Positions 17,103-36,806 are shown, counted from the stretch's first letter. The stretch: 47,870 nt of DNA from an uncultured Lachnospiraceae bacterium (GCA_964628455.1 CAZVPD010000002.1:1-47870), one strand, 5' to 3'. Numbers and translations: made by a program. The notes: generated from the letters alone by a model not told the origin.

Positions 17103-17732
17103 TCAGTTTACGGGACCTATTTTATCAAAAGGAAAAACCCGGAAGATGACGCGTCCGATAATATACCGGCAGTCGACCAGTCCGACGATCGAATTGCGGC
17201 TGTCAAGCGAATGATTGCGGTTGTCACCCATAACAAAGACGTACCCCTCCGGAATCGTTAACGGAAACTGCATATTCGATGAAAGCATAACGCGTCCCTC
17301 TTCGTAGTTCACATATGTTTCATCGAGTTTTTCACCGTCCACGACAACAGCCCATGACGAAAAATCAATGTTTATTTCCTGTCCGCCCACAGCGATGATG
17401 CGTTTGACCAGCGGTTCGTTATAACCGACGGCAGGAGACTGAAAAACGATAACGTCGTTCTGTGCGGGTTCATACAGTACCCCCGAGACCAGCAGTATGT
17501 CGTTTTCTTCCAGCGTGTGCGCCATGGAAGAACCAATTACGGGTGAATGGCGTACCGCGAAAGTCATAATGATCAGCACAAGTGAAAAAGAAAATACGAA
17601 AAGTTCGATCCATTCGAAGACAGATGAAGTCAGGTCGATTTTCTCGGGACTTCCGCTGCCGTTCCCGCTTTCCTTGTTTATTAAAACAGATTCGGATTTT
17701 TCCACATCGATGAAACCGTTTGCTTTTTCCAT
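17103..17732 (-). CDS. lepB: Signal peptidase I
   Basis: 209 aa. One TM segment, then GSSMAHTL (Ser box), KRIIAVGG (Lys box) and GDNRNHSLDSR. Confidence 0.92.
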   Translation of the reverse strand: MEKANGFIDVEKSESVLINKESGNGSGSPEKIDLTSSVFEWIELFVFSFSLVLIIMTFAVRHSPVIGSSMAHTLEENDILLVSGVLYEPAQNDVIVFQSPAVGYNEPLVKRIIAVGGQEINIDFSSWAVVVDGEKLDETYVNYEEGRVMLSSNMQFPLTIPEGYVFVMGDNRNHSLDSRNSIVGLVDCRYIIGRVIFRVFPFDKIGPVN

Positions 17733-17781
17733 GACGCCAAGAGCATCCTTTCATTCTGATCATTCCGGACATTCCGGTCAT

Positions 17782-18984
17782 TCAGACGTTTTTGATCATA
17801 TAACCCAGAAGATTAAAACCTTGTCCGATAAATAATCCTGTTTTGCCGCATGCCTCTTCCGTGAAGATTTCAACACCGTTGAGAATCAGGTCACTCGAAT
17901 AAATAATAAAGGGAACCGGGTCGGATGTATGTGTACGCAAAGCAACGGGAGTAGGATGATCCGGAAGTATCATCAGCTTAAACGGTTCGCTTCCCGATTG
18001 CAGATAATTCAGGAGCGGGCCTAAAACGAACTTGTCTATATACTCGATCGCTTTAATTTTATTCGCGAGTTCTGCGCGGTGTCCGCATTCGTCCGGAGCT
18101 TCGACATGAATATAGACGAAGTCGGAATCGCTTTCGAAGGCGCGGATTGCGGCTTCGGCTTTGCCTTTATAATTTGTGTGGATGTTTCCGGTTGCACCTT
18201 CGACATTTACAACATTCATTCCGGCGCACAGCCCGATCCCTTTGATCAGATCAACGGCAGAAATCACAGTCGCGTCAAGGTTCCATTTTTCTTTGAAAGA
18301 GGGGAGAGAAGGCTTTTTTCCGGGACTCCACAACCAGATGGAATTTGCCGGTTTTAATCCATTCTTTAAACGAGAAAGATTCAGAGGATGCAGGGATAAT
18401 ATTTTATAACTCTTTTTTTGCATGGTCAGAAAAGGTTCCGGCGGCAGATAATCGCCGATTTTTTGCCCGAGAATGTCATGAGGCCTCATAAAATCCGTAA
18501 AAGAAGGGGCGTTCTTCCACAACAGGCAGTGCCGGTAACTGACTCCGGTATAAAAACGTATGTTTTCGTCACCGACAGCGTCGTTCAGGAATTTGACCAG
18601 AATATCCGCTTCGGAAGTTTCTATTTCGTCCGAACTGTGGTCGGTCATTATAAAAGAATCGTAATCCGTATTTTCCGAACCGAGTGTGACAAGGTTGCAG
18701 CGGAATGCCGTGTCATCGGGCGACATCTCGAGCCCCATGGCAGCCGCTTCGAGAGGAGAACGACCTTTGGAGTATACGGCAGGGTCATAGGACAATATGG
18801 CCAGGTTTGCCGTGTCGCTTTCCGGCACCATGCCCGCGGGGATATTCGAAACCGTTCCCGCCAGTGAAGTTCGCGCAAGCAGGTCCATATTGGGTTTTTG
18901 CGCGATTTCCATCGGCGTTCTGCCGCCTAAAGATTCAATTTTGTAATCAGCCATTCCGTCGCAAATTAAAACACAGTATTTCAT
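17782..18984 (-). CDS. ApgM-type cofactor-independent phosphoglycerate mutase family (alkaline-phosphatase superfamily) protein
   Basis: 400 aa. N-terminus MKYCVLICDGMADY..GGRTPME.A..PNMD and C-terminal ILPDHPTP, both typical of the archaeal-type iPGM family. Confidence 0.75.
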   Translation of the reverse strand: MKYCVLICDGMADYKIESLGGRTPMEIAQKPNMDLLARTSLAGTVSNIPAGMVPESDTANLAILSYDPAVYSKGRSPLEAAAMGLEMSPDDTAFRCNLVTLGSENTDYDSFIMTDHSSDEIETSEADILVKFLNDAVGDENIRFYTGVSYRHCLLWKNAPSFTDFMRPHDILGQKIGDYLPPEPFLTMQKKSYKILSLHPLNLSRLKNGLKPANSIWLWSPGKKPSLPSFKEKWNLDATVISAVDLIKGIGLCAGMNVVNVEGATGNIHTNYKGKAEAAIRAFESDSDFVYIHVEAPDECGHRAELANKIKAIEYIDKFVLGPLLNYLQSGSEPFKLMILPDHPTPVALRTHTSDPVPFIIYSSDLILNGVEIFTEEACGKTGLFIGQGFNLLGYMIKNV

Positions 18985-19098
18985 TGATCGTTAATCTTTT
19001 CTGTTATTAATCGGAATTTATTGATCCCGTATTCTGTTTATTATATCACAGGAAGCAGTTATTAACAATACCAATAAATAAATTTTTTATAAATAAAA

Positions 19099-19127
19099 TT
19101 GACATGCGATGTCCGGGATGATATAAT
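19099..19127 (+). promoter_or_regulatory. Sigma-A type promoter for the glycosyltransferase gene
   Basis: TTGACA (19099-19104), a 17-nt spacer, then TGaTATAAT (19119-19127). Confidence 0.65.
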
Positions 19128-19214
19128 CGTTAAAGAATATAAATCAGAATACGTTAAATAATATGATATAAAACAAAAAAGCGTATATTCATGATTAAAA
19201 TAAAAGGATTATTT

Positions 19215-20435
19215 ATGGAACCTAAAAAGAAGCTGCTGATTATCGGCATTATAATGAACTGTGCCGGAACAGAGAAGTCTTTTCTCTCGTTTGCGAACTG
19301 TCTCGATTATTCGCGTTATGATGTCGACTTGCTGCTTGCCAGGAAAACAGGCGAATTATTCGGAAGCATACCGAAAGAAATAAACGTTATCGAACTGCCT
19401 GACCGGGAACACGCGGATATGTTTTTGTTATCGGGGAAAAATGCGGTCAGAACGATCTGGAACTGTTTTTGCAGAAAAAATCCATTCATTATTTTTATGA
19501 TTTTGCCTTATCTGGTCAGAATTGTTTTAAGTCCGCTGAAACGCGCCGATATTGCCACGGAATTATGGTGTTCTCTTCTGCAGCGATTTGATGTCCTTGA
19601 AAAGGAATATGATATAGCGGCTGCTTACTGGGGAGACAGGACTATGTTTTACATGGCAGATAAGGTCAGGGCGAAAAAGAAGGTCGCATGGCTGCATTTC
19701 GATTACGAAAATCCCCCCCGTAACGATGGGATTTATTTAGGATATTTTAGGAAATGTGACAGGGTCGTCACGGTATCCGAAAAAATCAAGGAAAATCTTG
19801 CCGCAAAATTTCCCGCTATTGCAGACCGTTTTATAACCATAGAAAATATAAACCGGCCCAAACATATATGGAATCTGGCTCTGCAGGGAGAAAGTTATCC
19901 CGACAGGTCTTTCACGGGTAAACGGTTGCTGACCATAGCACGCATCAGCGGACAAAAAGGAATAGACCTTGCAATCGAAGCTCTGAAATTTTTGTGTAAG
20001 GATGAACTGAATGTCAGATGGTATATTATCGGGGGGGGAGAAAAAGAGGAAGTTGACAATATAAAAGCAAAAGCGGTGCAGGAAGGCGTTGCCCATATGC
20101 TTATTCTGCTCGGAACCAAACAGAACCCGTATCCGTTTATAAGAGACTGTGACGTTTATGTCCAGCCGTCAAGATACGAAGGGAAACCGATAACAGTCGA
20201 AGAAGCCAAAATCATGTATAAACCTATTGTCGCAACGAATTATTTATCCGCTGCGGAACAGCTTGAATACGGTGAACTCGGTATCGTCACGGATATAAGC
20301 GGCAGTGCGTTGTATGGGGGTATCCGGCGAATGCTGGATGATATCGCTATCCGTGAAGGATTTACCTCCAGATTGTCGGGACGCGATTTCGGAAATTCCG
20401 ATGAGATCGAAAAATTCTACAGAATTACCGAATAA
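19215..20435 (+). CDS. GT4-family (GT-B, group 1) glycosyltransferase
   Basis: ORF 19191..20435. ATG 19215 is preferred (AAAGGA RBS). The C-terminal half has SRYEGKPITVEEAKIMYKPIV (E-x7-E block). Confidence 0.75.
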   Translation: MEPKKKLLIIGIIMNCAGTEKSFLSFANCLDYSRYDVDLLLARKTGELFGSIPKEINVIELPDREHADMFLLSGKNAVRTIWNCFCRKNPFIIFMILPYLVRIVLSPLKRADIATELWCSLLQRFDVLEKEYDIAAAYWGDRTMFYMADKVRAKKKVAWLHFDYENPPRNDGIYLGYFRKCDRVVTVSEKIKENLAAKFPAIADRFITIENINRPKHIWNLALQGESYPDRSFTGKRLLTIARISGQKGIDLAIEALKFLCKDELNVRWYIIGGGEKEEVDNIKAKAVQEGVAHMLILLGTKQNPYPFIRDCDVYVQPSRYEGKPITVEEAKIMYKPIVATNYLSAAEQLEYGELGIVTDISGSALYGGIRRMLDDIAIREGFTSRLSGRDFGNSDEIEKFYRITE

Positions 20436-20549
20436 ACATACCTGATCCCGCATAAAGAACGGTCGTTCATTCCGGACGGCAGTCTGCGTTCACTGCAATC
20501 TCATATTACCGTAACTGTTTAAACTTTTTATAAACAATTATCAAAACTC

Positions 20550-20578
20550 TTGCATAATATATAATTTTATGATAGAAT
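20550..20578 (+). promoter_or_regulatory. Sigma-A type promoter for rplS
   Basis: TTGCAT (20550-20555), a 17-nt spacer, then TAGAAT (20573-20578). Leaves a leader of about 105 nt. Confidence 0.6.
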
Positions 20579-20689
20579 ACTGTCGCTGTGCAGTATTTTT
20601 AACTTCCGGTTGGTATTTCACAGCATCAATAAGGACAGTCCTCTGCAATGCTCCGCACGAATGTCCACTATATAAGGAGGAAGCCGAAT

Positions 20690-21031
20690 ATGGATAAGAT
20701 ACAGGCTTTTACAAGCGAGCAGTTAAGACAGGACATGCCGGTTTTAAATATCGGAGACAGTGTCAAGGTTTACAACAAGATCAAGGAAGGCGCCAGAGAG
20801 AGAATTCAGATTTTCGAAGGAACGATTATCGCCCGCAGCGGAAGCGGACTTACCGAGACCTTTACCGTCCGTCATATTTCATACGGCATAGGTGTGGAAA
20901 AGATCTTTCCGGTGCATTCACCCAATGTTCAGAAAGTGGAAATTACCCGTCACGGTAAGATAAGGCGTGCAAAACTGTATTATTTGCGCGAAAAAGTGGG
21001 TAAAAAATCAAAAGTCAAGGAACTTATATAA
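20690..21031 (+). CDS. rplS: 50S ribosomal protein L19
   Basis: ORF 20648..21031. ATG 20690 is preferred, with AAGGAGG at 20674-20680. 113 aa; [30 protein letters not shown].. is classic L19. Confidence 0.95.
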
Positions 21032-21259: not shown

Positions 21260-23461
21260 ATGAAAATCAGTACGATGATAAAATCCGGGGCAGTCATACT
21301 GCTCGTATCTTTTGTTTTGTTCTCGGCATATTCCTGCGAGTCGGAACCGGATACTGCCGGAACCGGGATTATAATCGGTGAAGACGGCTGGCTTTTTGAA
21401 GAGGAGGACGGCAAGTTCAGCGAACTCGGTGATTATACCGGAAAGACTTTATTTACGGAACAGGAACTGGAACAGATTCTTAAAACGGTTAAGGCCAAAC
21501 GTACTTTTTTCGCAAAAACGAATACCGATCTTATCATAGTGATCATTCCCGATAAAATGAATGTATACAGCGACCGGTTGCCTGCGGAGATCCGGGCGCA
21601 GCGCTCAGCCGATACCCGTATCAAGCAGGTATACGATTATATCAAAAAAAATACGCGGATAACAATGGTCGATTTAAGCGAACTTTTTTCGATGAATTAT
21701 ACGGCTTTTGACCTGTATGAGCGTACCGATTCCATGCTTTCCGATATGGGGGCTTATCTTGCATATACCGAAATAGTAAAAGCCGTCAATTCTTTGAATA
21801 TTGCCGAATTGAATCTTGCCGGACTTGATTCGTTTCTTGTGGATATAGCAGATGATCAGGGATTGGAATTTGCCGAACGTATAGACGCGCAGTCACGCTA
21901 TAAAAACAAAACGATATCTCTGACCTATAAAAACGAGCTGCCTTATATCGTTGAAGAAGCCGGCAAATATGATATCGAAAACCTGAGTGTTACGGTCATA
22001 GACGAAGACAAACGCGACCCCGCATTCAGATATACGAATTTGATGATTTACGGCACGGAAAATTTAAAAAAAATCGGGAATTTCACTTCCCTTACATTTA
22101 AAAGCGCAGGATACACCGAAGGATTCATCACGGATGCGGAGGCAACGACTGCATTGAAACCCAATCAGGCTGTTTTTTTGATCGGCGAAAAGGAATTAAA
22201 TGAACTGCTTGAAAACAAATCGGTCAACGAGGAGTTGCTGGCAAGTTCGGAGACAAATACACCTCCCCCTTCACAAGGACAGGAGAACGATCCCGATCCG
22301 GTACCTACTTCGCTCGAACTCATCCCGCCCGATGAAAACACATGCGCCGCTCCCATTGTAACCGGGAAAACGTTTGCGGACCCGGCGCGTCTTGTTGTCG
22401 CAGGTGTCACCGAAGCGGGTACGACGATTCATGCCTCCGGGGGCAGGGAAGAGCTCGAATATTACGCTTACGACGGAATATTTTTACTCGATATCGAATG
22501 CAGTCCCGAGGTTAAAAAGATCGAACTTTACGCTTATGCCGAAAATAAAAACAACAGCGAAATCACAACCGTTACCGTCACAGGTTCTATGAACAGAGAT
22601 GATAAGGGGGTGTGTATCGGGAAAGACGGTCATCTTCATATAAGCGCAACCATGTATGATTTTCTCGGTTCGAATTTATATCCTGCAGGAACTCTGTCGG
22701 CAAAGCGAAGAAATCTTGAAAAACAACTGTCGGAAATCAGGAAAGTTTCGCCGAATTCCAAACTGATCGTTATGATTGCGCCGAATCATTCGACCATCTA
22801 TCCCGAAACGATGCCGGACTGGCTTCAGGAACAAAGGCAGGAAAATGCGGATTCAAAACTCGGACAAATGTATAAGGAAATGCAGGGATCCGAGGTGATT
22901 TTCCCTAATCTGACAGAACTGCTTCTAAGTAAAAAAACCGACGATACGCTGCTGTATCAGAAAACCGATACGCACTGGAACGAACTGGGGGCGTATTATG
23001 CGTATGAGTATATCATGAATGAATATATAGCGCCCGATTTCCCTGCGGCTGCGGCGATCCCGCTCTCCGAATTCGAAGTTTTTACCAAATCTGTTCCCGG
23101 GGGAGATATGCTGAATTTTTTGGGTTTCAATCTCGATCTTGCACGGGAAATAGCCGTTTATGTGCGGCCTAAAACTTTTACATCGGTTACGGGCTATGAC
23201 AAACCTTTCAGAATGAATTTCGAGAACAACTGGACCAGCGAAACTCATGCGTTTAAAAAAGAAGATCCGGAACTGCCTTCTATGTTTATGACGCGCGATT
23301 CGTTCAGTACGAATCTGATCATGTTTTTTGCCGAAAACTTCAGGGAATCCTATTTTAACGGCATGTGGAGTTATAATATTGACATGGATTATATACGTCA
23401 GAACAAACCGGATTATGTGATCATTGAAGCTGTTGAAAGAAATATAGACGCAATAGGATGA
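21260..23461 (+). CDS. Exported double AlgX/AlgJ-type SGNH-like domain protein (N-terminal copy degenerate), paralog 1
   Basis: 733 aa with an N-terminal signal peptide (..LFSAYSC). N-terminal domain: IGEDGWLF, IIPDKMNVY, TDSML..GAYLAY. Then a PPPSQGQENDPDP linker and an Ig-like segment. C-terminal domain: IGKDGHL, IAPNHSTIYPE, QKTDTHWNELGAYYAY, RDSFS. Confidence 0.7.
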   Translation: MKISTMIKSGAVILLVSFVLFSAYSCESEPDTAGTGIIIGEDGWLFEEEDGKFSELGDYTGKTLFTEQELEQILKTVKAKRTFFAKTNTDLIIVIIPDKMNVYSDRLPAEIRAQRSADTRIKQVYDYIKKNTRITMVDLSELFSMNYTAFDLYERTDSMLSDMGAYLAYTEIVKAVNSLNIAELNLAGLDSFLVDIADDQGLEFAERIDAQSRYKNKTISLTYKNELPYIVEEAGKYDIENLSVTVIDEDKRDPAFRYTNLMIYGTENLKKIGNFTSLTFKSAGYTEGFITDAEATTALKPNQAVFLIGEKELNELLENKSVNEELLASSETNTPPPSQGQENDPDPVPTSLELIPPDENTCAAPIVTGKTFADPARLVVAGVTEAGTTIHASGGREELEYYAYDGIFLLDIECSPEVKKIELYAYAENKNNSEITTVTVTGSMNRDDKGVCIGKDGHLHISATMYDFLGSNLYPAGTLSAKRRNLEKQLSEIRKVSPNSKLIVMIAPNHSTIYPETMPDWLQEQRQENADSKLGQMYKEMQGSEVIFPNLTELLLSKKTDDTLLYQKTDTHWNELGAYYAYEYIMNEYIAPDFPAAAAIPLSEFEVFTKSVPGGDMLNFLGFNLDLAREIAVYVRPKTFTSVTGYDKPFRMNFENNWTSETHAFKKEDPELPSMFMTRDSFSTNLIMFFAENFRESYFNGMWSYNIDMDYIRQNKPDYVIIEAVERNIDAIG

Positions 23462-23498
23462 AAAACAAGCGGAGATCCGTTGTTATCTCATCCGTATC

Positions 23499-25625
23499 AT
23501 GCGAATGCGGGGTGTTGGTTTGAAATATAGGAATTTACGGCGGTTTTTGATGTTGATTATTTTACTTTTAACCGCTGCCGCAGCTTCATGCGGTAAAAAC
23601 GTTTCAAACGGAGTCATATTCGGCAGAAATAATTTTCTCTTCAACACAAATGCCGGCGGTTATGATTATATTGCCGATTTCAACGGTGAAATTCCCTATA
23701 CGGATGATGAGCTTCAGCTGATTTACAATGCGCTGAACAAACGGCAGCTTGCTTACGGCAACAGCGGGATCGCATATATGGTTGCCGTTATTCCGAATTC
23801 GCAGACCGTCTATCCGGAATATATGCCGTCAGAATACGGAGAATTAAGCGGAAGCACGAGACTGAAACAGGTCGCCGCATACGTTGAGCAGATGGGCGGT
23901 ATAAACATGCTCGATCTGACGCAGGTGCTGACGGAATCGAAAAACAAAGGCCAGCTGTATCATAATACCGAAAATTCGCTGAATGCCCTGGGCGCATATT
24001 ACGCGTATGCCGCTGTATACGAGCGGCTTCCGGAAAAAATGCGCACAAAGAATGTGTTGAATTCGGAACTTGTAAAGAAAGTCTCGAAAGAAAAAACAAA
24101 GGGATTGTCTCTTGCCGTCCTGTCCGGAGCCGACATTGAAAACAACACCTATTTTCTGAATATCGGCGATGAGGAAACAGTGTATTCGGTACTCGGCAGC
24201 ACAGAAATTCTGGTGTCGACTTACGTAAAAATCGGCTTCAAGGACAGGATCCCCACGGTGCCCGCAATTCTCCTGGATTTGGCCGATCAGTCCGACCTCG
24301 ATGTTTTTATGCCTTATTTTTCCAGCACTTACGGCAGCGTCGGATATAAGCTGAATTACAATTACAGCCCGGGGGCTGTAAATTCCGTGGCACCCAAAAC
24401 CGCAGTTCAGATTCTGCATGAGGATATGCTTTCCTCGCTCCTTGATGATGAAGTCAATCAGACGTATAACGCTGCCTTGAAGCCCGGAGACGACCCGACG
24501 ACTGCGATGACTCCCGTTCTGCTTTCAAAGGTAATGACCGACAGGAAAACAGCCTGTCTTATCGGAACGGTTGAAGCCGGTTCTGTGATAACGGTTTCCG
24601 GTCCGGGTTTGGAAACTTTCACGGCGTATCCGCAGCACGAACGCTTCTTTATTCCCGTTCCCCTCGATAAGGGCGAAAGCATTACGGTTTCTCTTATTGC
24701 TTCCGTTGAAGGCAAAAACAGCAGTTCCGCGCTTGAAGTACCCGTGGCATATTCCGAAGGTGCGGGAGGACTGACTGTTTTTGCGGGAAAATATTCGCAG
24801 CTGCATTATCCGGATACACTGGCCGATTATTACTGCACAAACCTGTTTACCGACAACCAGATGGTAAAAATGGAAAGCAGACTTTTGAAAAAACTCGCAA
24901 AAATACGCAAGGCGAGCGGCAGGGAAACGAAACTTTTATTTCTGATTCCGCCCGATGCCATCACGGCGTATCCGGAAACAGCAACGGATGAAATGACAGA
25001 AAAGAAAAAAAGCGACTACTCCCGCCTTAAGCAAATAGAGGATTATTATGCGGACAGCAAAGACATCATCATCGTCAACCTGACCGAAACGATGCTTCAG
25101 AATAAAGACAAAGGCAAATTGTATTACCAGACGGATACGCACTGGAATACTCTGGGGTCCTATTTGGGCTATTATAAAATGATGCAGGTTATCTCACGGG
25201 AATTTCCCGCGGCTGCGCCGCGTGAGATATCCGAATATAATATTTATCAGCAGTATGACGCCGGCGGTGACCTTGCGAATTTTCTCGGTGTCGATACCGG
25301 TCTGGTAAGCGAATATAAAACTTTCTGCACACCCTCTTTTACGAACCGGGCTGTCATCACCAACTATTTCAGCGGATCGCCGGATTATGTTTACAGCGAT
25401 CAGATAAAATGTGTCGTCGATAACAAAGAACTTCCCAATGCCATTATGATATGTGATTCATTCGGAGCCAATCTGCTTGATTTTGTAACGGACGCTTTCG
25501 GTATACTGGTTCGCCAGACTATGTGGGAGTATAAAACCGATACGGAACTGATCGCGGAAGTTCAGCCGGACTATTATATACAGGTTATGGTTGAGCGCAA
25601 TATGGCGAGTTTTGTAGTCGGATAA
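23499..25625 (+). CDS. Exported (lipobox) double AlgX/AlgJ-type SGNH-like domain protein, paralog 2
   Basis: 708 aa with signal peptide and lipobox LTAAAASC. Alternative starts are ATG 23505 and TTG 23520. N-terminal domain: VIPNSQTVYPE, NTENSLNALGAYYAY. C-terminal domain: LIPPDAITAYPE, YQTDTHWNTLGSYLGY, CDSFG. Confidence 0.7.
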   Translation: MRMRGVGLKYRNLRRFLMLIILLLTAAAASCGKNVSNGVIFGRNNFLFNTNAGGYDYIADFNGEIPYTDDELQLIYNALNKRQLAYGNSGIAYMVAVIPNSQTVYPEYMPSEYGELSGSTRLKQVAAYVEQMGGINMLDLTQVLTESKNKGQLYHNTENSLNALGAYYAYAAVYERLPEKMRTKNVLNSELVKKVSKEKTKGLSLAVLSGADIENNTYFLNIGDEETVYSVLGSTEILVSTYVKIGFKDRIPTVPAILLDLADQSDLDVFMPYFSSTYGSVGYKLNYNYSPGAVNSVAPKTAVQILHEDMLSSLLDDEVNQTYNAALKPGDDPTTAMTPVLLSKVMTDRKTACLIGTVEAGSVITVSGPGLETFTAYPQHERFFIPVPLDKGESITVSLIASVEGKNSSSALEVPVAYSEGAGGLTVFAGKYSQLHYPDTLADYYCTNLFTDNQMVKMESRLLKKLAKIRKASGRETKLLFLIPPDAITAYPETATDEMTEKKKSDYSRLKQIEDYYADSKDIIIVNLTETMLQNKDKGKLYYQTDTHWNTLGSYLGYYKMMQVISREFPAAAPREISEYNIYQQYDAGGDLANFLGVDTGLVSEYKTFCTPSFTNRAVITNYFSGSPDYVYSDQIKCVVDNKELPNAIMICDSFGANLLDFVTDAFGILVRQTMWEYKTDTELIAEVQPDYYIQVMVERNMASFVVG

Positions 25626-25656
25626 ACGCTGCGGATCAAACATGATAAGATCAAAC

Positions 25657-25703
25657 GGCAAAACAGTCGGGCTTCAAACGGCCTGACTGTTTTGCCGTTT
25701 ATA
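25657..25703. terminator. Bidirectional terminator between convergent AlgX-like and esterase genes
   Basis: Perfect 12-bp stem ggcaaaacagtc (25657-25668) / gactgttttgcc (25685-25696), with T-rich flanks on both strands. Confidence 0.6.
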
Positions 25704-25749: not shown

Positions 25750-26409
25750 TTATTTGGTTTTCTGTGCTGCCAGCCATTCGATCAGGTCTGTTGATTCATA
25801 TGCCTGAGTCCATGAGTCGTGTCCCGTGTTTTTAAAAACAGTAAAGGAGGGATTCCCCCCGGTTTCTTTAATAGCCCCGATCATTTCATGCATGCAGGCG
25901 ACAGGCACGACAGAATCGATATCGCCGTGAAAAGCGCGTATCGGAATGTCGCGTAAAACGGAAGCGCGCCACGACTGACCCCCTCCGCAAACCGGAGCCA
26001 GAGCAGAGAAATATCCCGGAAAGGTAAGACCCATTTCCCATGTTCCGAATCCTCCCATGCTTAATCCCGTCAGGCTTATTCTGCTTCGGTCGGCATTGTA
26101 TTCGGACACTATATGTTCGATAAGTTCCATCAGTTCAAAAGCAAGATGGTTCCAGACTTTGTCCGGAGGGCACTGGGGGGACAGAGTGATAACCCGAAGA
26201 TGATGGTAATTTTCGTCATTTGCGAATAATTTCGGAATGCCGTGGATCTTTACCTGTTCGATATCATATCCGCGTTCACCCGCACCGTGCAGAAAAACAA
26301 TCAGCGGGAGCGATTCTTTTTCGGGATCAAAATCACCGGGTGCCGTTAAAAAATACGGTAAAACCGTTGATTTTTCTTTAAACGGAATATATTGCGCTTG
26401 TTTTTTCAT
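25750..26409 (-). CDS. Alpha/beta-hydrolase esterase (phospholipase/carboxylesterase or CE1-like)
   Basis: 219 aa. LIVFLHGAGERG oxyanion region, nucleophile elbow GLSMGG, and a late HGDIDSVV / GHDSW Asp/His region. Confidence 0.7.
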   Translation of the reverse strand: MKKQAQYIPFKEKSTVLPYFLTAPGDFDPEKESLPLIVFLHGAGERGYDIEQVKIHGIPKLFANDENYHHLRVITLSPQCPPDKVWNHLAFELMELIEHIVSEYNADRSRISLTGLSMGGFGTWEMGLTFPGYFSALAPVCGGGQSWRASVLRDIPIRAFHGDIDSVVPVACMHEMIGAIKETGGNPSFTVFKNTGHDSWTQAYESTDLIEWLAAQKTK

Positions 26410-26620: not shown

Positions 26621-28075
26621 ATGTTAAACAAACGTATTGTCCCGCTGATGCTTGCATTTATTATGATGATGTCATTTGCCGTGTCATGTGCCGATGAGAA
26701 GACGGAATCGCCGGTTTCAGCACCGGAAACATCATCAGCACCGGCTGAGGTAACCGAACTTGAGCCCGACCTGCCCGATATCGATCTTGATGCGGAAACA
26801 GTCAATTTTTTAACCGAAGAAAATCCGGGTTACGACTGGTATACCAGCAAGGAAATTTATGCCGAGACACAAAACGGCGAGTTGTTTAACGATGCCGTAT
26901 ATACGCGGAATTTATTGATCGAAGAGCGCTTTAATGTTAAAATCACTCAGTCACGGCTGCAGAATGCGACGGCGGCGGCCAGAAAATCTTTGCTGGCCGG
27001 AGAAACAGAATATGATGTGACTATGCCATACATGAATGTCGCAATATCGCTGCCGCAGGAGGGGCTGCTGCTTGATTTGAATAAAGTTCCGTATCTGACG
27101 CTGGAAAATCCATGGTGGGATCAGCGGGCCAACGAAAACCTGAAGATGAACGGAAAACTTTTCTTCACGACAGGGGACATCAGCATACTCGACAACGAAT
27201 GCACCATGGTCATGTTCTTCAATAAAAAACTGATAGGCGACTACAGCCTCGATAATCCGTATGAACTTGTAAAAAGCAGCAAATGGACGCTTGATAAATT
27301 ATTCGAAATGTCTGCCGGCGTGACAAATGACATAGACGGCGACGGAAAACTCACCCAGAAAGATCTTTGGGGATTATCGTGCGCTTCAAACGCTCCTCAT
27401 TCATTCTTCTTCGCTTCGGGTGAACGTATAGCATCCAACAACAGCGAAGGACAGCTCGAACTTGTTATGAATACGACCCGAGCCGCAACGGTCATCGATA
27501 AGATCATGTCGGTATGCCTCGATCCCTCCGTTTTATCCGATCATACCGGAGGTTCGGGTTTCGATCAGGTCTGCATCATGTTTAACGACAGCCGTGTTTT
27601 GTTTGTGACTTTTGCCCTTGTTGATATCAACGGATTGCGCGATGCCGAGTTTGAATTCGGAATACTTCCTTATCCTCTTTATGACGAAAGTCAGCCGGAA
27701 TACAACTGTCTTATCAGTTCGGGAATCGTACCCGCACTCTCTGTTCCTTATAACTGCACCAAACTCGATGCCGTAGGGATTGTTCTCGAGTCAATGGCCT
27801 ATTATTCGGTCGACACTCTGACTGCAGCTTATTATGACAATGCGCTGAAAACACGCTATATACGCGATGAAGAGTCCGGAGAGATGCTTGACATCATCTT
27901 TGCCACTCGTGTTTATGACCTTGGATTCATCTTTGACTGGGGCGGAGCAGGAAATTTGATCTATAATATGTATATGAAGAAAAACAACAATTTCGCCTCG
28001 GCATTTGCCGGAATACAGGAAAAAGCAGAAGCTGCGATGAATAAAACAATCGAAGCATTCAATTCGATCAGCTGA
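26621..28075 (+). CDS. ABC transporter extracellular solute-binding lipoprotein (carbohydrate type)
   Basis: 484 aa. Lipobox signal peptide MSFAVSC followed by a Ser/Pro/Glu-rich tether. Size and composition fit the large sugar-binding SBP family. No permease or ATPase gene is adjacent. Confidence 0.65.
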   Translation: MLNKRIVPLMLAFIMMMSFAVSCADEKTESPVSAPETSSAPAEVTELEPDLPDIDLDAETVNFLTEENPGYDWYTSKEIYAETQNGELFNDAVYTRNLLIEERFNVKITQSRLQNATAAARKSLLAGETEYDVTMPYMNVAISLPQEGLLLDLNKVPYLTLENPWWDQRANENLKMNGKLFFTTGDISILDNECTMVMFFNKKLIGDYSLDNPYELVKSSKWTLDKLFEMSAGVTNDIDGDGKLTQKDLWGLSCASNAPHSFFFASGERIASNNSEGQLELVMNTTRAATVIDKIMSVCLDPSVLSDHTGGSGFDQVCIMFNDSRVLFVTFALVDINGLRDAEFEFGILPYPLYDESQPEYNCLISSGIVPALSVPYNCTKLDAVGIVLESMAYYSVDTLTAAYYDNALKTRYIRDEESGEMLDIIFATRVYDLGFIFDWGGAGNLIYNMYMKKNNNFASAFAGIQEKAEAAMNKTIEAFNSIS

Positions 28076-29357: not shown

Positions 29358-31235
29358 TTAAATTGCGATATATTCTATGACGGCGCTTGAAAATTTTTCA
29401 TCCAGTGTTATTAAGATCCCTTCGGCAAGCTGCTTCCCCGAACAAACCGATTCTTTCCGATTGTAATTTTCGTCTGTCAGAATGACTCTGTAGTTTTTGT
29501 TTTCGTCCATCGCCGACAGAGCGATGGAACGGCTGTGTTCTTCACTGTGACGGCGGCGGAAAACGACCGCAAACCCGTCGTCTCCGAGCTTCAGCTGATA
29601 AGCCGCCCACACCGTTTCATCACAGGTGGTTTCCGTCAGCGCGTAAAAGTCACCGAGCCAATACTTGCGGAGATGAACCAGCTCGCCTGTCGCTTTTATC
29701 GCGGGTATCGGATCGTAATCGTCCTTCATCATATCAAATCCGCAGGCAATACCCATGGTCATGCCGGAACGGAACTCATATGCTTTTTCAAACCAGCTGC
29801 TCGCGAGATGATAGGGCAGGTAGCGCGATAAATGAACGGTTTGATTCTGATGCCATGTGCCGACCGGACGCTCGATTGTATTGGGAGAACAGGCTGTGTC
29901 GCTTCGCCAGCAGGGAACCGAACGGATGCAGGTTTCAAGGTCTATGCGACGTCCGCCGGACGAACAGTTATCGATCATTATATTAGGGAAATGTTCGATA
30001 ATCGCATCCCACATTTTATATAATCCTTCTACAAAACGCATTTCGGTGATCCCTTTGCGTCCCTCCGGGTCATTGTTCTGCCAATAAGGCAGAGGGTCTA
30101 TATTGAAATCCTCGCGATAAATGTCAATGCCGTTATCTGAGATGAATTTTATCAAAGTGTTCGTCAACCATGAGAGCGCTTCGGGATTGCCGAGGTTATA
30201 CAACCTGTTCTCGTTGCTTTCGCCGTAATTCAGCAGCCAGCCGTCCCCGTCGCCGTGAGCCGCATAGATGTCGCTGCCGATGTGAATGCGTTCGGGTTCA
30301 AACCAGATCATGAGTTTCATGTGATTGGCATGAGAAGCGTCGGACAGACTGCGAAGTCCGCCTGAGAATCCGGGTGCGAACGTATAGTTGCCGACACCTG
30401 TGGGAAAACCCTCCCGAAACCATGCGGCATCAAGCCAGAATGTGTTTATATTTCCACCGCATTTCCCGGCATTTCCGATAATTTTCAGCTGACCTTCTTC
30501 GGTGCGGTACAAGGGAGTGTTCCAAAAATAACGGTCAAAATCCTGAACAGAAAGAGGAACATCAAAGTTTTCTCCGAGATATTTTGCCGGACTGTAGTGT
30601 TTCCTTAAAATTCTGCGGAAGTCGTGACGCAGTTTCTGCAGGTTATCACCTGTTAAGATCAGCACGCGGATCGACCGTGCGCTTTCGCCGGGCATCAGGT
30701 AAAAATCGCAATCGGTCTGTCCTGCTTTGAGATGTATTTCACTGCTGCTGCGCCGGATATCGAGATGCCACTGACCTGACCAGCCGATCGCGCAGGCAAT
30801 AATATTTTTGTCGCAGGCAATATCAAAAAAGGGAAAAGCTGTTTCCTGGCTCGGACGGCCGCGCTGAGGCTCGATCGTAACCGCATCGCCGATTCCGATC
30901 TTTTTTTCGAGAGGCATAAAGGATCTGCCGTCGCAGTAATCTCCCTCGAGCCCGCGCCAAACCGTTTCATCCGTTTCAGGACAGGGAACGGTTAAATCCA
31001 TTCCGTTAATCTCAGATATGCGTCCCGAATTTGTTTGTCCGATGTTTTTGAAACGAACGATCCATTCCGATGCCTCAGGAACAACACGGGTAAGCTCAAG
31101 TGTGACTTCAAGGTTGTTTTTTATAACCGTTACATACAAATTCCCATTCTGTATCATGGAAGAGGGTGAAATCCGGTACAGGATTCCGTTATAACGAAAA
31201 CTCGCCGCCGCAGCTGATTTCATATCGATCATCAT
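29358..31235 (-). CDS. Glycoside hydrolase, GH36-like, paralog 2, cytoplasmic
   Basis: 625 aa. Shares the block pattern of 3442..5400: FWLDAAWF, LMIWFEPERI, IYREDFN, DNCSSGGRR, PCWRSD. Confidence 0.7.
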   Translation of the reverse strand: MMIDMKSAAAASFRYNGILYRISPSSMIQNGNLYVTVIKNNLEVTLELTRVVPEASEWIVRFKNIGQTNSGRISEINGMDLTVPCPETDETVWRGLEGDYCDGRSFMPLEKKIGIGDAVTIEPQRGRPSQETAFPFFDIACDKNIIACAIGWSGQWHLDIRRSSSEIHLKAGQTDCDFYLMPGESARSIRVLILTGDNLQKLRHDFRRILRKHYSPAKYLGENFDVPLSVQDFDRYFWNTPLYRTEEGQLKIIGNAGKCGGNINTFWLDAAWFREGFPTGVGNYTFAPGFSGGLRSLSDASHANHMKLMIWFEPERIHIGSDIYAAHGDGDGWLLNYGESNENRLYNLGNPEALSWLTNTLIKFISDNGIDIYREDFNIDPLPYWQNNDPEGRKGITEMRFVEGLYKMWDAIIEHFPNIMIDNCSSGGRRIDLETCIRSVPCWRSDTACSPNTIERPVGTWHQNQTVHLSRYLPYHLASSWFEKAYEFRSGMTMGIACGFDMMKDDYDPIPAIKATGELVHLRKYWLGDFYALTETTCDETVWAAYQLKLGDDGFAVVFRRRHSEEHSRSIALSAMDENKNYRVILTDENYNRKESVCSGKQLAEGILITLDEKFSSAVIEYIAI

Positions 31236-35364: not shown

Positions 35365-36450
35365 TCAAAAAGAAGATGGGCTGCTTAAAATAAAATCCAT
35401 ATATCGATTCCAGTCGTAACGGCTCAGAAAATGCCCGCCTGCTCTCAGATGAAATCCTATATTTCCTTGATGGAAAATATCGCCCGCAGCGGGTTCACGG
35501 TCGTGGCAGACAAATCCGTTTGTGTTCAGGAAACGATAAGCTTCGGAGGCTGCATATGCTGCCAGATATTCCGAATAAGGGTCTGCCCAGGTGTCTTCCA
35601 GCGCGGTTCCGAGCAATACACAGCGGGGCGCGCAGGCTGCAATCAGAAAATGCTGGTCAAAAGGCATTTCTTCTTCTTTATCGGCGTATTTTTTATAATT
35701 CGGGCAAAACCAATACGGAAAATTTTTTGTTATATCCTTTACGCGCTCACCTGTCTTGCCGCGGGTAATGGCACCTCCCGAACAGCCGGAGTTGTTTGAA
35801 ATCACATATTTTACACGCGTATCGTTGGCGCCGCACCATAATGCGGTCTTACCGAGTCTGGAATGACCGATCACCGCTATCTGTCCGTCGTCGATGTCGG
35901 AAAGCGATGAAAGATAATCAAGCGCCCGGCTTGCCGCCCACGCCCACATCGAAATTTTCCCCCAATTATATATTTTCCTGTCGTATAAACCCGCTATGCC
36001 GTCATAAAACTCGTCGTTGGAGTCGGATGCGATATCGGTATAACAAAAACTTGCCAGAGCAAAACCCCTGTCCGTTATTTCTTCTGCGGGCATATATTTA
36101 TCGGGTATATCGTCACGGAAAGCAATGTGAAGCAGCAAAGGAACGCGTTTATCGGATTTTGGTATGAATAAATTCAAAGGAAAACTGAAAACGGAATCGG
36201 GAGTCGATATTTTCAGCCGAACGGCTGTAAACTGTACTTTACCTCCGTATTCGTTTTTATTATGCGATATGATCTCATAGGTTACAGGTGCCGGCGGAGG
36301 CATATAACCGTATTCTTCACGGGCGAGTATTTCGATTATTTCGGCACGGCGAAGTTCCCAGCCGTTCGGGTCTGTCATTTGAGTGCCGTTGGCAAATGTC
36401 AGAAGAGAGGGCAAACCTCTTTTTTTTATCTCTTCGTTTAAATACATCAT
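35365..36450 (-). CDS. Alpha/beta hydrolase, glucuronoyl esterase (CE15)-like, cytoplasmic
   Basis: ORF 35365..36534. ATG 36450 is preferred (GGAGGAATC RBS) and removes the overlap with the HIT gene. 361 aa. IGHSRLGKTALWCG resembles the CE15 G-C/H-S-R-x-G-K nucleophile block. No signal peptide. Confidence 0.5.
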   Translation of the reverse strand: MMYLNEEIKKRGLPSLLTFANGTQMTDPNGWELRRAEIIEILAREEYGYMPPPAPVTYEIISHNKNEYGGKVQFTAVRLKISTPDSVFSFPLNLFIPKSDKRVPLLLHIAFRDDIPDKYMPAEEITDRGFALASFCYTDIASDSNDEFYDGIAGLYDRKIYNWGKISMWAWAASRALDYLSSLSDIDDGQIAVIGHSRLGKTALWCGANDTRVKYVISNNSGCSGGAITRGKTGERVKDITKNFPYWFCPNYKKYADKEEEMPFDQHFLIAACAPRCVLLGTALEDTWADPYSEYLAAYAASEAYRFLNTNGFVCHDREPAAGDIFHQGNIGFHLRAGGHFLSRYDWNRYMDFILSSPSSF

Positions 36451-36464
36451 GATTCCTCCGTTTG

Positions 36465-36806
36465 TCAGCCCATATCCGCAGGAAGCTGTTTGCCGCCCAG
36501 AATATGGAAGTGAAGATGTTTGACGGACTGGCATGCGTCGGGTCCGCAGTTTGTAATGACGCGGTAGCCGTTTTTTAATCCTGCATTCTGAGCCATCAGG
36601 GGGATCCGTTCGAAAACAGCCGCGATGATACCGCTGTTTTCCTGATTGATCTCATCGGAAGACGCGATATGTTTTTTCGGGATAACCAGTATATGTACCG
36701 GTGCCTGCGGATGAATATCATAAAACGCGGTTATCATATTGTCTTCATATACTTTTTCGGAAGGGATTTCATCCCTTGCGATTTTACAGAAAATACAGTC
36801 TTTCAT
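36465..36806 (-). CDS. HIT family (histidine triad) nucleotide hydrolase
   Basis: 113 aa. CIFCKI start and HLHFHILGG histidine triad. Confidence 0.9.
   Translation of the reverse strand: MKDCIFCKIARDEIPSEKVYEDNMITAFYDIHPQAPVHILVIPKKHIASSDEINQENSGIIAAVFERIPLMAQNAGLKNGYRVITNCGPDACQSVKHLHFHILGGKQLPADMG

Follow-up and report, generated by a model that had tools for sequence, protein, structure and literature searches.

Two neighbouring genes of the plus strand, here called P1 and P2, raise the question of how proteins of an O-acyltransferase family might act when no MBOAT partner is encoded nearby. They lie in a 47,870-nucleotide stretch of DNA (the window, analysed as a whole), and an earlier note had described them as tandem paralogs that each join an inactive and an active AlgX/AlgJ-type SGNH domain through an Ig-like module.

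Architecture of the gene pair

The open reading frames of P1 (733 aa, 21260..23461) and P2 (708 aa, 23499..25625) were aligned over their full length with 27% identity (E 9e-69), and the same order of modules was found in both, namely a lipoprotein signal, an SGNH-like domain A, an Ig-like sandwich, and an SGNH-like domain B. P1 and P2 are diverged tandem paralogs of one architecture, a description on which the reading frames, the Pfam matches, and the AlphaFold2 (AF2) models now agree; the motifs and both Ig-like strings quoted earlier were all located where they had been placed. Each protein contained two stretches matching ALGX (PF16822) and a match to DHHW (PF14286), and ALGX was matched by both halves of both proteins (whole-protein E 1e-32 and 8e-28). 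P2 may start at either ATG 23499 or ATG 23550, the latter being used by the database representative P0010. The features of the locus were assigned as follows.

21260..23461, +: P1 gene, 733 aa, with signal, domain A, disordered linker, Ig-like module and domain B (ORF, Pfam, AF2 pLDDT 88.8, orthologs at 52-80% identity)
21260..21337, +: P1 predicted signal peptide with lipobox, Cys26 (sequence reading; Cys after the hydrophobic region kept in P0002-P0009)
21359..22243, +: P1 domain A, aa ~34-328, SGNH-like (AlgJ 4O8V alignment at aa 34-180; no His; dN 0.14 against saturated dS)
22244..22345, +: P1 Pro/Ser/acidic linker, predicted disordered (pLDDT < 50 at aa 329-341)
22346..22579, +: P1 predicted Ig-like beta-sandwich, aa ~363-440 (AF2 strands 366-439; weak Big_6 matches in paralogs)
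22604..23458, +: P1 domain B, aa ~449-733, PatB1/AlgJ-type (PatB1 alignment, DHHW and DSF blocks)
23499..25625, +: P2 gene, 708 aa (691 aa if ATG 23550), with P1-like architecture (ORF, Pfam, AF2 pLDDT 92.0, 65 homologs)
23499..23591, +: P2 predicted signal peptide with lipobox AAASC, Cys31 (sequence reading; Cys kept across the P2-type clade)
23604..24476, +: P2 domain A, aa ~36-326 (motif census; A-type profile against AlgJ)
24510..24752, +: P2 predicted Ig-like beta-sandwich, aa ~338-418 (AF2 strands 340-417; Foldseek SiiE BIg and FN3)
24777..25622, +: P2 domain B, aa ~427-708 (AlgJ and PatB1 alignments)
25653..25700, unstranded: hairpin with a 20-bp stem 3' of P2, assigned as terminator of both the P1-P2 unit and a convergent esterase gene (terminator scan)
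26621..28075, +: SBP-like lipoprotein, ~490 aa (weak SBP_bac_8 match; paralogs beside Ig-B genes)

P1 and P2 are separated by 37 bp, and the terminator scan gave no hairpin between them comparable to that after P2; the two genes are probably co-transcribed.

Both AF2 models were confident (pLDDT 92.0 for P2 and 88.8 for P1) and each showed two alpha/beta domains with an identical order of secondary-structure elements, separated by a linker followed by a seven-strand beta-sandwich. In a Foldseek search, the P2 model matched the DHHW protein 4NZK, PatB1, AlgJ, and AlgX. Domains A and B were homologous over 270 columns by profile-profile comparison (probability 99.9%, E 1e-31), a relationship that plain BLASTP did not detect. 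The earlier interpretation hinged on an SGNH fold in A, and with this profile match and the B-like alpha/beta model that reading stands. The middle module of P2 matched Ig and FN3 domains in Foldseek, including SiiE BIg and FN3 (E ~1e-3), and paralogs of P1 and P2 matched Big_6 in Pfam (E 4e-4 and 0.07); Pfam returned no Ig match in P1 or P2 themselves. By its modelled fold, the module is classed as a bacterial Ig-like (Big-type) domain.

By fold and sequence, P1 and P2 belong to the AlgX/AlgJ-DHHW family of circularly permuted SGNH-like O-acyltransferases. Orthologs at 52-82% identity share the whole architecture, and in the closest genomes the family is multi-copy, with members on four contigs of STF2_11 and on four of EPI_MAG_00124. 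The duplication into P1-type and P2-type genes is seen repeatedly, in at least four genomic settings unrelated to one another, and is old, with the P2-type keeping an ancestral signature in domain A that the P1-type lost. The proposal that the tandem of A and B predates the gene duplication was likewise upheld.

Catalytic residues of domains A and B

Domain B carries TDTHW at 22964-22978 in P1 and 25131-25145 in P2, as well as a serine block, RDSFS (23294-23308) and CDSFG (25452-25466), respectively. In both proteins these blocks align with the DHHW and KDSF(A) blocks of PatB1 and with TDTHW of AlgJ, so the catalytic signature claimed for B, Asp-x-His and Ser, is intact. The triad was invariant throughout the examined clade that shares the Ig-B core.

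In domain A, the position of D-x-H-W is occupied by TDSML (21725-21739) in P1 and TENSL (23967-23981) in P2, where the acidic residue is kept as Asp or Glu and His is replaced by Met or Ser, respectively. When AlgJ (4O8V) was aligned with aa 34-180 of P1, TDSML fell on the TDTHW of AlgJ, and the A-type profile placed Glu on the Asp and Ser on the His of AlgJ. Residues 1-330 of P1, which include the whole of domain A, contain no His. A search of A for a nucleophile Ser block was negative; the equivalent column is unconserved, and EWD comes directly after it in the A-type consensus. The loss of His and Trp and of the serine block reported earlier is thus real, with P1-A entirely free of His, and the survey of homologs extended the loss of the triad in A to every two-domain protein examined.

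The view of A as a dead copy holds for its catalytic residues, but A belongs to a separate and strongly conserved clade with signatures of its own. These are NNTE[ND]SLN.LG at the position of TD.HW ([LIV] was also seen for L) and YFSNTF, or more broadly [YF]FSNTF. The first is present in P2-A (HNTENSLNALGA, with NTENSLNALGA) and absent in P1-A (ERTDSMLSDMGA), and orthologs of P1 have TGANL or TGTDL. The second is closely matched by YFSSTYG in P2-A (24315-24335) and degenerate as NFTSLTF in P1-A (22082-22099). The A domains of the L003 lineage have also lost the signature. Values of dN for A were 0.14 in P1 and 0.25 in P2 with dS saturated, and dN stayed well under dS in each of the three modules, showing that A is under purifying selection.

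Stand-alone A-type proteins are anchored by a TM helix, and the gene lies directly downstream of an MBOAT-like gene in all other A-type loci (55/55). The MBOAT-like partners have lost both conserved His residues, which correspond to His289 and His336 of DltB, and in many of them the shuttle Tyr is missing as well. Neither the TM anchor nor an upstream His-less MBOAT-like gene was found for P1 and P2. In two-domain proteins linked to an MBOAT-like gene, A is invariant and the triad of B decays, and the triad of B is strictly retained exactly where the MBOAT-like gene is absent. P2-A, which still has the signature seen in partners of MBOAT-like proteins, may itself dock to such a protein, which would count against an MBOAT-independent role. 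Additionally, A is one of several N-terminal accessories of the Ig-B core, in whose place other members have Big_2 modules or nothing, as would be expected if it served for binding or as a spacer.

Linkage to MBOAT genes and membrane anchoring

Pfam searches with every plausible ORF of 150 aa or more in the 47-kb window returned neither an MBOAT nor an AT3 match. A broad MBOAT HMM applied to six-frame ORFs of at least 80 aa (E <= 10) gave no match in the window or in seven related loci (L001-L004, L012, L070, and L072), and no MBOAT was called in three others (L073, L074, and L075). An MBOAT-like ORF within 6 kb was present at 0/35 further loci of the Ig-B clade, and none was found in the closest genomes sampled. 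As a positive control, the identical scan detected a canonical MBOAT, with the WRRWH motif and C-terminal FIYFRF, immediately upstream in 44/44 canonical single-domain relatives. These results show a clade-wide absence of a linked MBOAT, so the missing partner reported earlier is a property of the Ig-B clade and not an artefact of a fragment. An adjacent MBOAT is the rule for A-type (55/55) and canonical (44/44) homologs but not for the Ig-B clade (0/35), the window, or the other paired loci. The adjacent MBOAT donor with catalytic His and C-terminal FxYxxF that is a trait of the AlgX/AlgJ-DHHW family was therefore not found at P1/P2 or the surveyed Ig-B loci.

At the N-terminus, the MBOAT-linked relatives have a TM helix accompanied by a conserved YFG[IM]T motif. 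This helix is absent from P1, P2, and their orthologs, which have a lipobox in its place (LFSAYSC26 in P1 and TAAAASC31 in P2) with the Cys kept in orthologs. The lipobox previously noted in P2 is accordingly present, but not in P2 alone, as P1 has its own (FSAYSC26). This sequence and its conservation suggest that P1 and P2 are lipoproteins.

Proposed role and alternatives

The nearest characterised counterpart is Bacillus cereus PatB1 (DHHW family, PDB 5V8D/5V8E), an O-acetyltransferase of secondary cell wall polysaccharide. Domain B has the circularly permuted SGNH-like fold of PatB1 (Foldseek E 1e-10), matches its DHHW/TDTHW and KDSF/RDSF blocks residue for residue, and, like PatB1, would be extracytoplasmic in a Gram-positive bacterium. 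However, PatB1 is a single TM-anchored domain whose gene adjoins that of the MBOAT PatA1, whereas P1 and P2 are predicted lipoproteins with an extra disabled domain, an Ig module, and no linked MBOAT. In alginate O-acetylation by Pseudomonas AlgJ and AlgX (ALGX family, PDB 4O8V and 4KNC), two paralogous SGNH-like proteins serve one pathway, as P1 and P2 are paralogs; the ALGX model fits both A and B, AlgJ aligns to both, and AlgX also joins an SGNH-like domain to a non-catalytic carbohydrate-binding module. In AlgJ and AlgX, by contrast, the triad is intact, and both proteins require the MBOAT AlgI from the same operon, whereas P1 and P2 each have one disabled domain, an accessory module that is itself SGNH-like, and no linked MBOAT. 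Structurally, the P2 model was matched best (E 2.5e-11) by EUBSIR_00411 of Eubacterium siraeum (PDB 4NZK), an uncharacterised DHHW protein that is also from a gut Clostridium, but this protein has only one domain (353 aa) and sets no precedent for the A-Ig-B arrangement. MBOAT/SGNH acyl-shuttle pairs such as PatA/PatB and DltB/DltX/DltD (PMC12148441) represent the ancestral type of system; distant relatives of P1 and P2 keep a canonical MBOAT (WRRWH, WHG, C-terminal FxYxxF) directly upstream, whereas the P1/P2 pair has no such partner.

The data favour MBOAT independence of P1 and P2. We give about an even chance (roughly 0.5) to the explanation that they are MBOAT-independent O-acyl esterases or transacylases of the cell surface, with B as the catalyst and A as a membrane-proximal binding or scaffold module, in a clade of Clostridia that descended from MBOAT-coupled acyltransferases. 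Both proteins would be lipoproteins tethered to the outside of the cytoplasmic membrane in this uncultured gut bacterium of the Eubacteriales (Clostridia). The non-catalytic, SGNH-like domain A would lie next to the membrane, followed by the Big-type spacer, which in P1 is preceded by the putatively disordered Pro/Ser/acidic linker, and by the distal, PatB1/AlgJ-type domain B with its predicted Ser-His-Asp triad. B would strip O-acyl groups from a cell-surface glycan, or shift them from glycan to glycan, through an acyl-Ser intermediate and without a membrane acyl-Tyr donor, and A and the Ig module would keep B off the membrane and probably bind the glycan. We infer that the chemistry is that of an esterase or transacylase, that the substrate is a glycan, and that A has a binding role. 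The acyl-Tyr shuttle of PatA/PatB bridges a gap of 10-18 Å at the membrane surface (PMC12148441), whereas B, in the modelled geometry, would be placed beyond A, the linker, and the Ig module.

We consider it rather unlikely that P1 and P2 are true wall or capsular polymer O-acyltransferases supplied in trans by an MBOAT (or AT3) encoded elsewhere, although the biochemically characterised AlgX/DHHW members are all O-acetyltransferases working with an MBOAT (PMC9487903, PMC12148441), a precedent that also counts against the esterase reading. The GT4-rplS-P1-P2 order conserved in the window, L001, and L101 would suit such a supply, and an MBOAT or AT3 donor gene may lie beyond the window and the loci that the searches covered. 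AlgX, by analogy, is encoded several genes away from algI. None of the characterised AlgX/DHHW members is known to be a physiological esterase. However, a lipobox has replaced the TM anchor, the other modules would stand between B and the membrane, and the absence of AT3 and MBOAT matches from 47 kb and of a linked MBOAT from the Ig-B and paired loci differs sharply from the 44/44 and 55/55 linkage of the relatives. The closest GTDB genomes were not among the results of the MBOAT-like gene scan, which is weak evidence in the same direction.

Somewhat less probable again is a reading that puts the core function in A, has P1 and P2 dock to a distant His-less MBOAT-like partner, and leaves B with an accessory activity. 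It would explain why P2-A retains, as NTENSLNALGA and YFSSTYG, the nearly invariant motifs of A-type domains, which are encoded after an MBOAT-like gene in every case, why A is under purifying selection, and why A outlasts the triad of B in MBOAT-like-linked two-domain proteins. Yet P1-A and the L003 lineage have lost that signature, the TM helix with its YFG motif is missing, no MBOAT-like gene lies near any paired locus or in the closest genomes sampled, and B keeps its triad exactly where that gene is missing. Loss of the catalytic residues of A and the low identity between P1 and P2 (27%) might also suggest decaying duplicates without a present function. That candidate was rejected as highly improbable, being already contradicted by frames intact over more than 700 codons, the architecture kept in orthologs at 52-82% identity, a dN much lower than dS in each of the three modules, and the invariant triad of B.

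More broadly, and only tentatively, the classical MBOAT/SGNH machine for envelope acylation may have split in gut and rumen Clostridia into two undescribed derivatives. One would be a widespread pair of an MBOAT-like protein without both His residues and an A-type protein without His and Ser, both strongly conserved, implying a non-enzymatic role or new chemistry. The other would be the MBOAT-free clade including P1 and P2, in which an intact PatB-like domain carried on a disabled A would work by itself as an O-acyl esterase or transacylase on surface glycans, perhaps aided by the neighbouring SBP-like lipoprotein.

Genes for SBP-like lipoproteins adjoin family members at five further loci (L003, L078, L079, L081, and L082), and the ~490-aa lipoprotein is a possible functional partner of Ig-B proteins. 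The neighbours of the Ig-B clade are mostly housekeeping genes, so the genomic context gives no firm substrate. The tie to the upstream GT4 gene drawn in the earlier note is weak, because rplS sits between that gene and P1 and the order is confined to one lineage. In that lineage, GT4 and rplS ahead of the pair would fit a role in modifying a wall polymer of the cell itself.

Architecture and genomic setting of P1 and P2

Two adjacent genes of the window encode the tandem paralogs P1 and P2, which consist of an N-terminal SGNH-like domain (A), an Ig-like module, and a C-terminal SGNH-like domain (B). They lie in an ordinary Clostridial chromosome, arranged as follows.

21260..23461, + strand: P1, ORF of 733 aa
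23499..25625, + strand: P2, ORF of 708 aa
minus strand: trkAH, clpX, tig, thrC, rnhB, ylqF, lepB, gpmI
+ strand: GT4 gene, then rplS, P1, P2
downstream of P2: convergent PHB-depolymerase-type esterase, SBP-like lipoprotein, GFO/IDH/MocA oxidoreductase, two melibiase-like genes
also downstream of P2: carB, CE15-type glucuronoyl esterase, pyk, prfA

P1 and P2 aligned end to end with 27% identity (E 9e-69). Every motif quoted in the earlier note was found in its place, and the paired A/Ig-like/B architecture that it proposed was borne out by Pfam, PDB alignments, AlphaFold2, Foldseek, and an A-B profile alignment. In particular, Pfam identified two ALGX (PF16822) stretches and DHHW (PF14286) in each protein, and PDB sequence searches aligned AlgJ (4O8V) and PatB1 (5V8D/E) to both halves, with TDSML of P1-A falling on TDTHW of AlgJ and TDTHW of B on DHHW of PatB1. 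The AlphaFold2 models, based on 51-53 homologs each, were confident (pLDDT 92.0 for P2 and 88.8 for P1) and predicted two alpha/beta domains with their elements in the same order, separated first by a linker (in P1 disordered at aa 329-341) and then by a seven-strand beta-sandwich. Foldseek against the PDB matched 4NZK (a DHHW protein), PatB1, AlgJ, and AlgX (E 1e-8 to 1e-11), and the middle module matched Ig/FN3 domains. Across 270 columns, the profiles of A and B could be aligned (probability 99.9%, E 1e-31). The similarity escaped self-against-self BLASTP of each protein and emerged only in the profile-profile comparison. No NCBIfam model was found for P1, P2, the SBP-like neighbour, or the A-type proteins, a clade sharing the signature of domain A.

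A lipobox Cys is present in both P1 and P2 and kept in their orthologs, and this conserved sequence suggests that both proteins are anchored as lipoproteins. The genes are separated by 37 bp without a terminator, a hairpin with a 20-bp stem follows P2, and the two are probably co-transcribed. The start of P2 is ambiguous (window 23499-23552): a start at ATG 23499 comes with a positively charged n-region but has its GGAG as far as 24 nt upstream, and gene callers chose ATG 23550, yielding the 691-aa representative P0010.

The link to the GT4 gene drawn in the earlier note was rejected as functional evidence because the arrangement is restricted to one lineage. Additionally, rplS is opposite in strand to the lepB-ylqF-rnhB block, with gpmI and the GT4 gene between (window 17103-21031), an arrangement also found in the related locus L001. 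Glycan-processing genes are abundant in the window, comprising two melibiase-like genes, GH4, the CE15-type glucuronoyl esterase, and the PHB-depolymerase-type esterase (3442-5400, 6618-8021, 29358-31235, 35365-36534, and 25750-26409), which suggests that the host is a plant-glycan degrader.

Conservation of domains A and B in the wider family

The loss of the triad from domain A, seen in P1 and P2 by the earlier note, extends across homologs: motif censuses found the His missing from A in every two-domain protein. A relocated histidine was looked for and is excluded at the sequence level, since P1-A has zero histidines and neither of the two in P2-A is conserved. The column of A that the profile alignment matches to the nucleophile Ser of B is not conserved, and an FSNTF block specific to A is the counterpart of the AEHF/AQSF block in B and PatB1. 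Ser275 of P2-A (YFS) was considered as a nucleophile equivalent and dropped because the alignment puts it on this later block.

Most relatives share a near-invariant signature in A (NNTE[ND]S[LIV]N.LG and [YF]FSNTF), which is kept in P2 (NTENSLNALGA, YFSSTYG) and lost in P1. The same signature is borne by single-domain, TM-anchored proteins of 360-450 aa that align to A and not to B. By its signature P2-A is a member of this A-type clade, yet it lacks the TM anchor and the MBOAT-like neighbour of that clade. Domain A is constrained despite being disabled, with dN of 0.14 (P1) and 0.25 (P2); dS exceeds 2 and is saturated, so that dN/dS is qualitative only. While A retains only the fold of the PatB1/AlgJ family, B has the fold, the Asp-x-His, and the Ser, and differs from PatB1/AlgJ in having no linked MBOAT partner. 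Domain A is clearly suited as a test case for pseudo-enzyme modules that selection has kept.

Both the P1 and P2 clades, along with a few others, have kept the triad of B intact, and in many two-domain relatives it is degenerate. Word-indexed searches identified 9 P1-type and 65 P2-type relatives, all from MAGs of uncultured Eubacteriales/Clostridia and some named 'alginate O-acetyltransferase AlgX-related protein' by NCBI, and a full HMMER search returned 2913 representatives at E < 1e-30. Scanning genomes with P1 alone recovered just one distant locus, and alignments were needed as the query. In a neighbour-joining tree, one clade united the P1-type genes, among them the first gene of L070 and that of L072, and the P2-type genes fell in others, indicating that the duplication is older than these lineages. 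The pair is common and not obligatory, as two adjacent family genes occurred in roughly half of the loci of the Ig-B clade (proteins with the Ig module and a triad-intact B, including P1 and P2). The same Ig-B core carries A, Big_2 modules, or nothing as its N-terminal part; the contig of the Big_2-Ig-B paralog P0104 is just 4 kb, and its context is uninformative. The pair is modified in one lineage, where its second gene encodes a lipoprotein of ~450 aa with Ig-B only and no A (L003 12082-13440; L074 12053-13405; L075 3840-5201; L080 3064-4398), and the A domain of the first gene is without the A-type signature.

MBOAT linkage and a doubly disabled MBOAT-like/A-type pair

The absence of an MBOAT reported in the earlier note holds, as neither an MBOAT nor an AT3 gene is present in the window, and a broad MBOAT HMM found none among all six-frame window ORFs of at least 80 aa, even at E <= 10. 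The first survey, with an HMM derived from three MBOAT neighbours, detected an MBOAT-like ORF directly upstream and on the same strand in 55/55 A-type loci (~35 with a single A domain and ~15 A-Ig-B with a degenerate B), and in 8/9 distant canonical loci fetched in that scan. The same HMM found no such ORF in the window, its syntenic ortholog (L001/L002), L003/L004, or L012. More paired loci without MBOAT were located in unrelated contexts, namely L070/L071/L073, where the pair adjoins rubrerythrin, L072, where it follows a ROK gene and a PlsC-type acyltransferase, and L074/L075. At L072, the PlsC-type gene (PF01553, 392 aa, 6697-7875) lies 2 bp upstream of the P1-type/P2-type pair, a possible alternative acyl-donor link in this single case.

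When the Ig-B region was used to seed a second scan of genomes, 79 loci were obtained. The Ig-B clade accounts for 35, every one of them from Clostridia of the gut or rumen, encoding A-Ig-B, Big_2-Ig-B, or Ig-B with D.HW throughout, and none (0/35) had an MBOAT within 6 kb. The 44 canonical single-domain relatives, from many phyla, all had a canonical MBOAT (WRRWH, C-terminal FIYFRF) immediately upstream, which shows that MBOATs do not escape the method and that enzymes of this type are, as a rule, linked to one. The missing MBOAT is a property of the clade and not a local one, and we hold both the architecture and this clade-wide lack of linkage with high confidence. A TM helix bearing a YFG[IM]T motif is found in the MBOAT-linked relatives, whereas in P1, P2, and their orthologs the lipobox has taken its place.

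Neither conserved MBOAT histidine is present in the MBOAT-like proteins adjoining A-type domains. In canonical neighbours the sequence is FWRRWHISLS…GLWHGA, aligned to His289 (RWH) and the catalytic His336 (WHG) of DltB, and both motifs are replaced in the A-type-linked proteins (e.g., YIDRFFISLN…LWFKAS). In a profile alignment to DltB covering its residues 18-409 (E 1e-22), they have l in place of His289 and f in place of His336. The C-terminal FxYxxF is the MBOAT acyl shuttle motif (PMC12148441); its Tyr is missing in many of these proteins, with PFRDIIF, PFSGITL, or PFWDISL in its place (e.g., L044 8187-9650; L053 2675-4102), and kept in some (FKYITF, FKYFIF), and a new conserved PQ[YF]P motif lies ahead of it. 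Their SGNH-like partners lack the His and the nucleophile Ser. Thus, both partners are without canonical catalytic residues, while other motifs are near-invariant across >50 species-level genomes of gut/rumen Clostridia (L005-L010, L013-L060, L064; e.g., L009 8514-9977 and 10001-11188).

In 23 loci (L005 8305-8610, L014-L022, L033-L050, L064), this pair adjoins a small protein of ~100-140 aa with the motifs ALDMLAVYDTLRLL and DERTVYRRL and no Pfam match, which is probably cytoplasmic and, by its conserved motifs, looks like a sigma-region-4/HTH regulator. A MarR regulator and two ABC_membrane/ABC_tran exporter genes also flank the pair (L007 3466-7554; L009 11309-15382), and an ABC-type neighbour cluster of ~600 aa recurred in 21 loci.

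According to current accounts, acylation of bacterial envelope polymers follows a single universal mechanism, that of the MBOAT/SGNH pairs (PMC12148441). This sizeable Clostridial radiation departs from that rule in two ways, with one branch whose intact PatB/AlgJ-type domains are never MBOAT-linked and a sister branch in which both partners lack the catalytic histidines and are still conserved. In the literature searched, we found no description of histidine-less bacterial MBOATs, the A-Ig-B architecture, the MBOAT-free Ig-B clade, or the doubly disabled pair.

Proposed mechanism, alternatives, and substrate

In the current model, the Ser of the SGNH partner is acylated through an acyl-Tyr shuttle on the MBOAT, and this shuttle spans 10-18 A at the membrane surface (PMC12148441). 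Domain B would be positioned past A, the linker, and the Ig module, and its acyl groups are thus probably not supplied by a membrane protein. With its own Ser-His-Asp triad, B may act as an O-acyl esterase or a glycan-to-glycan transacylase, and A may serve as a binding or scaffold module. We give this full mechanism a probability of about 0.5; the observations of the earlier note stand, and its interpretation is supported in part. A role of the Ig-B proteins as esterases or donor-independent transacylases, if confirmed, would be the first of its kind in the AlgX/DHHW family and would make them candidates for removing O-acetyl groups from wall or dietary glycans in abundant uncultured gut/rumen Firmicutes.

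P1 and P2 could instead be transferases fed in trans by a distant MBOAT or AT3, which seems unlikely given the zero linkage in Ig-B clade loci, the changed anchor, and the geometry. Somewhat less likely still is docking of A to an unlinked MBOAT-like partner: the signature conserved in P2-A speaks for it, but P1-A is degenerate and the TM helix is missing, and the absence of the closest genomes from the A-type and MBOAT-like scans counts weakly against it, as those scans were pattern-limited. Intact frames, conserved orthologs, and low dN contradict the idea of decaying duplicates, which we regard as highly improbable.

For the substrate of the proposed esterase or transacylase, the neighbourhoods lean in two directions. 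At about five loci independent of one another, Ig-B genes adjoin paralogous SBP-like lipoproteins of ~490 aa. No ABC permease genes lay next to these lipoproteins where this was checked, and no solved homolog of the neighbour in the window was detectable by sequence.

window 26621-28075: SBP-like lipoprotein
L078 2190-3653: SBP-like lipoprotein
L079 2782-4317: SBP-like lipoprotein
L081 2533-4023: SBP-like lipoprotein
L082 3994-5499: SBP-like lipoprotein
L003 8277-9800: SBP-like lipoprotein

A GFO/IDH/MocA oxidoreductase is often near the SBP-like or Ig-B genes, and the family shows multi-copy expansion in the closest genomes. These features, together with the glycan-degrading character of the window, lean towards exogenous acetylated glycans, and the GT4-rplS synteny and the housekeeping neighbours elsewhere lean towards the own cell envelope.
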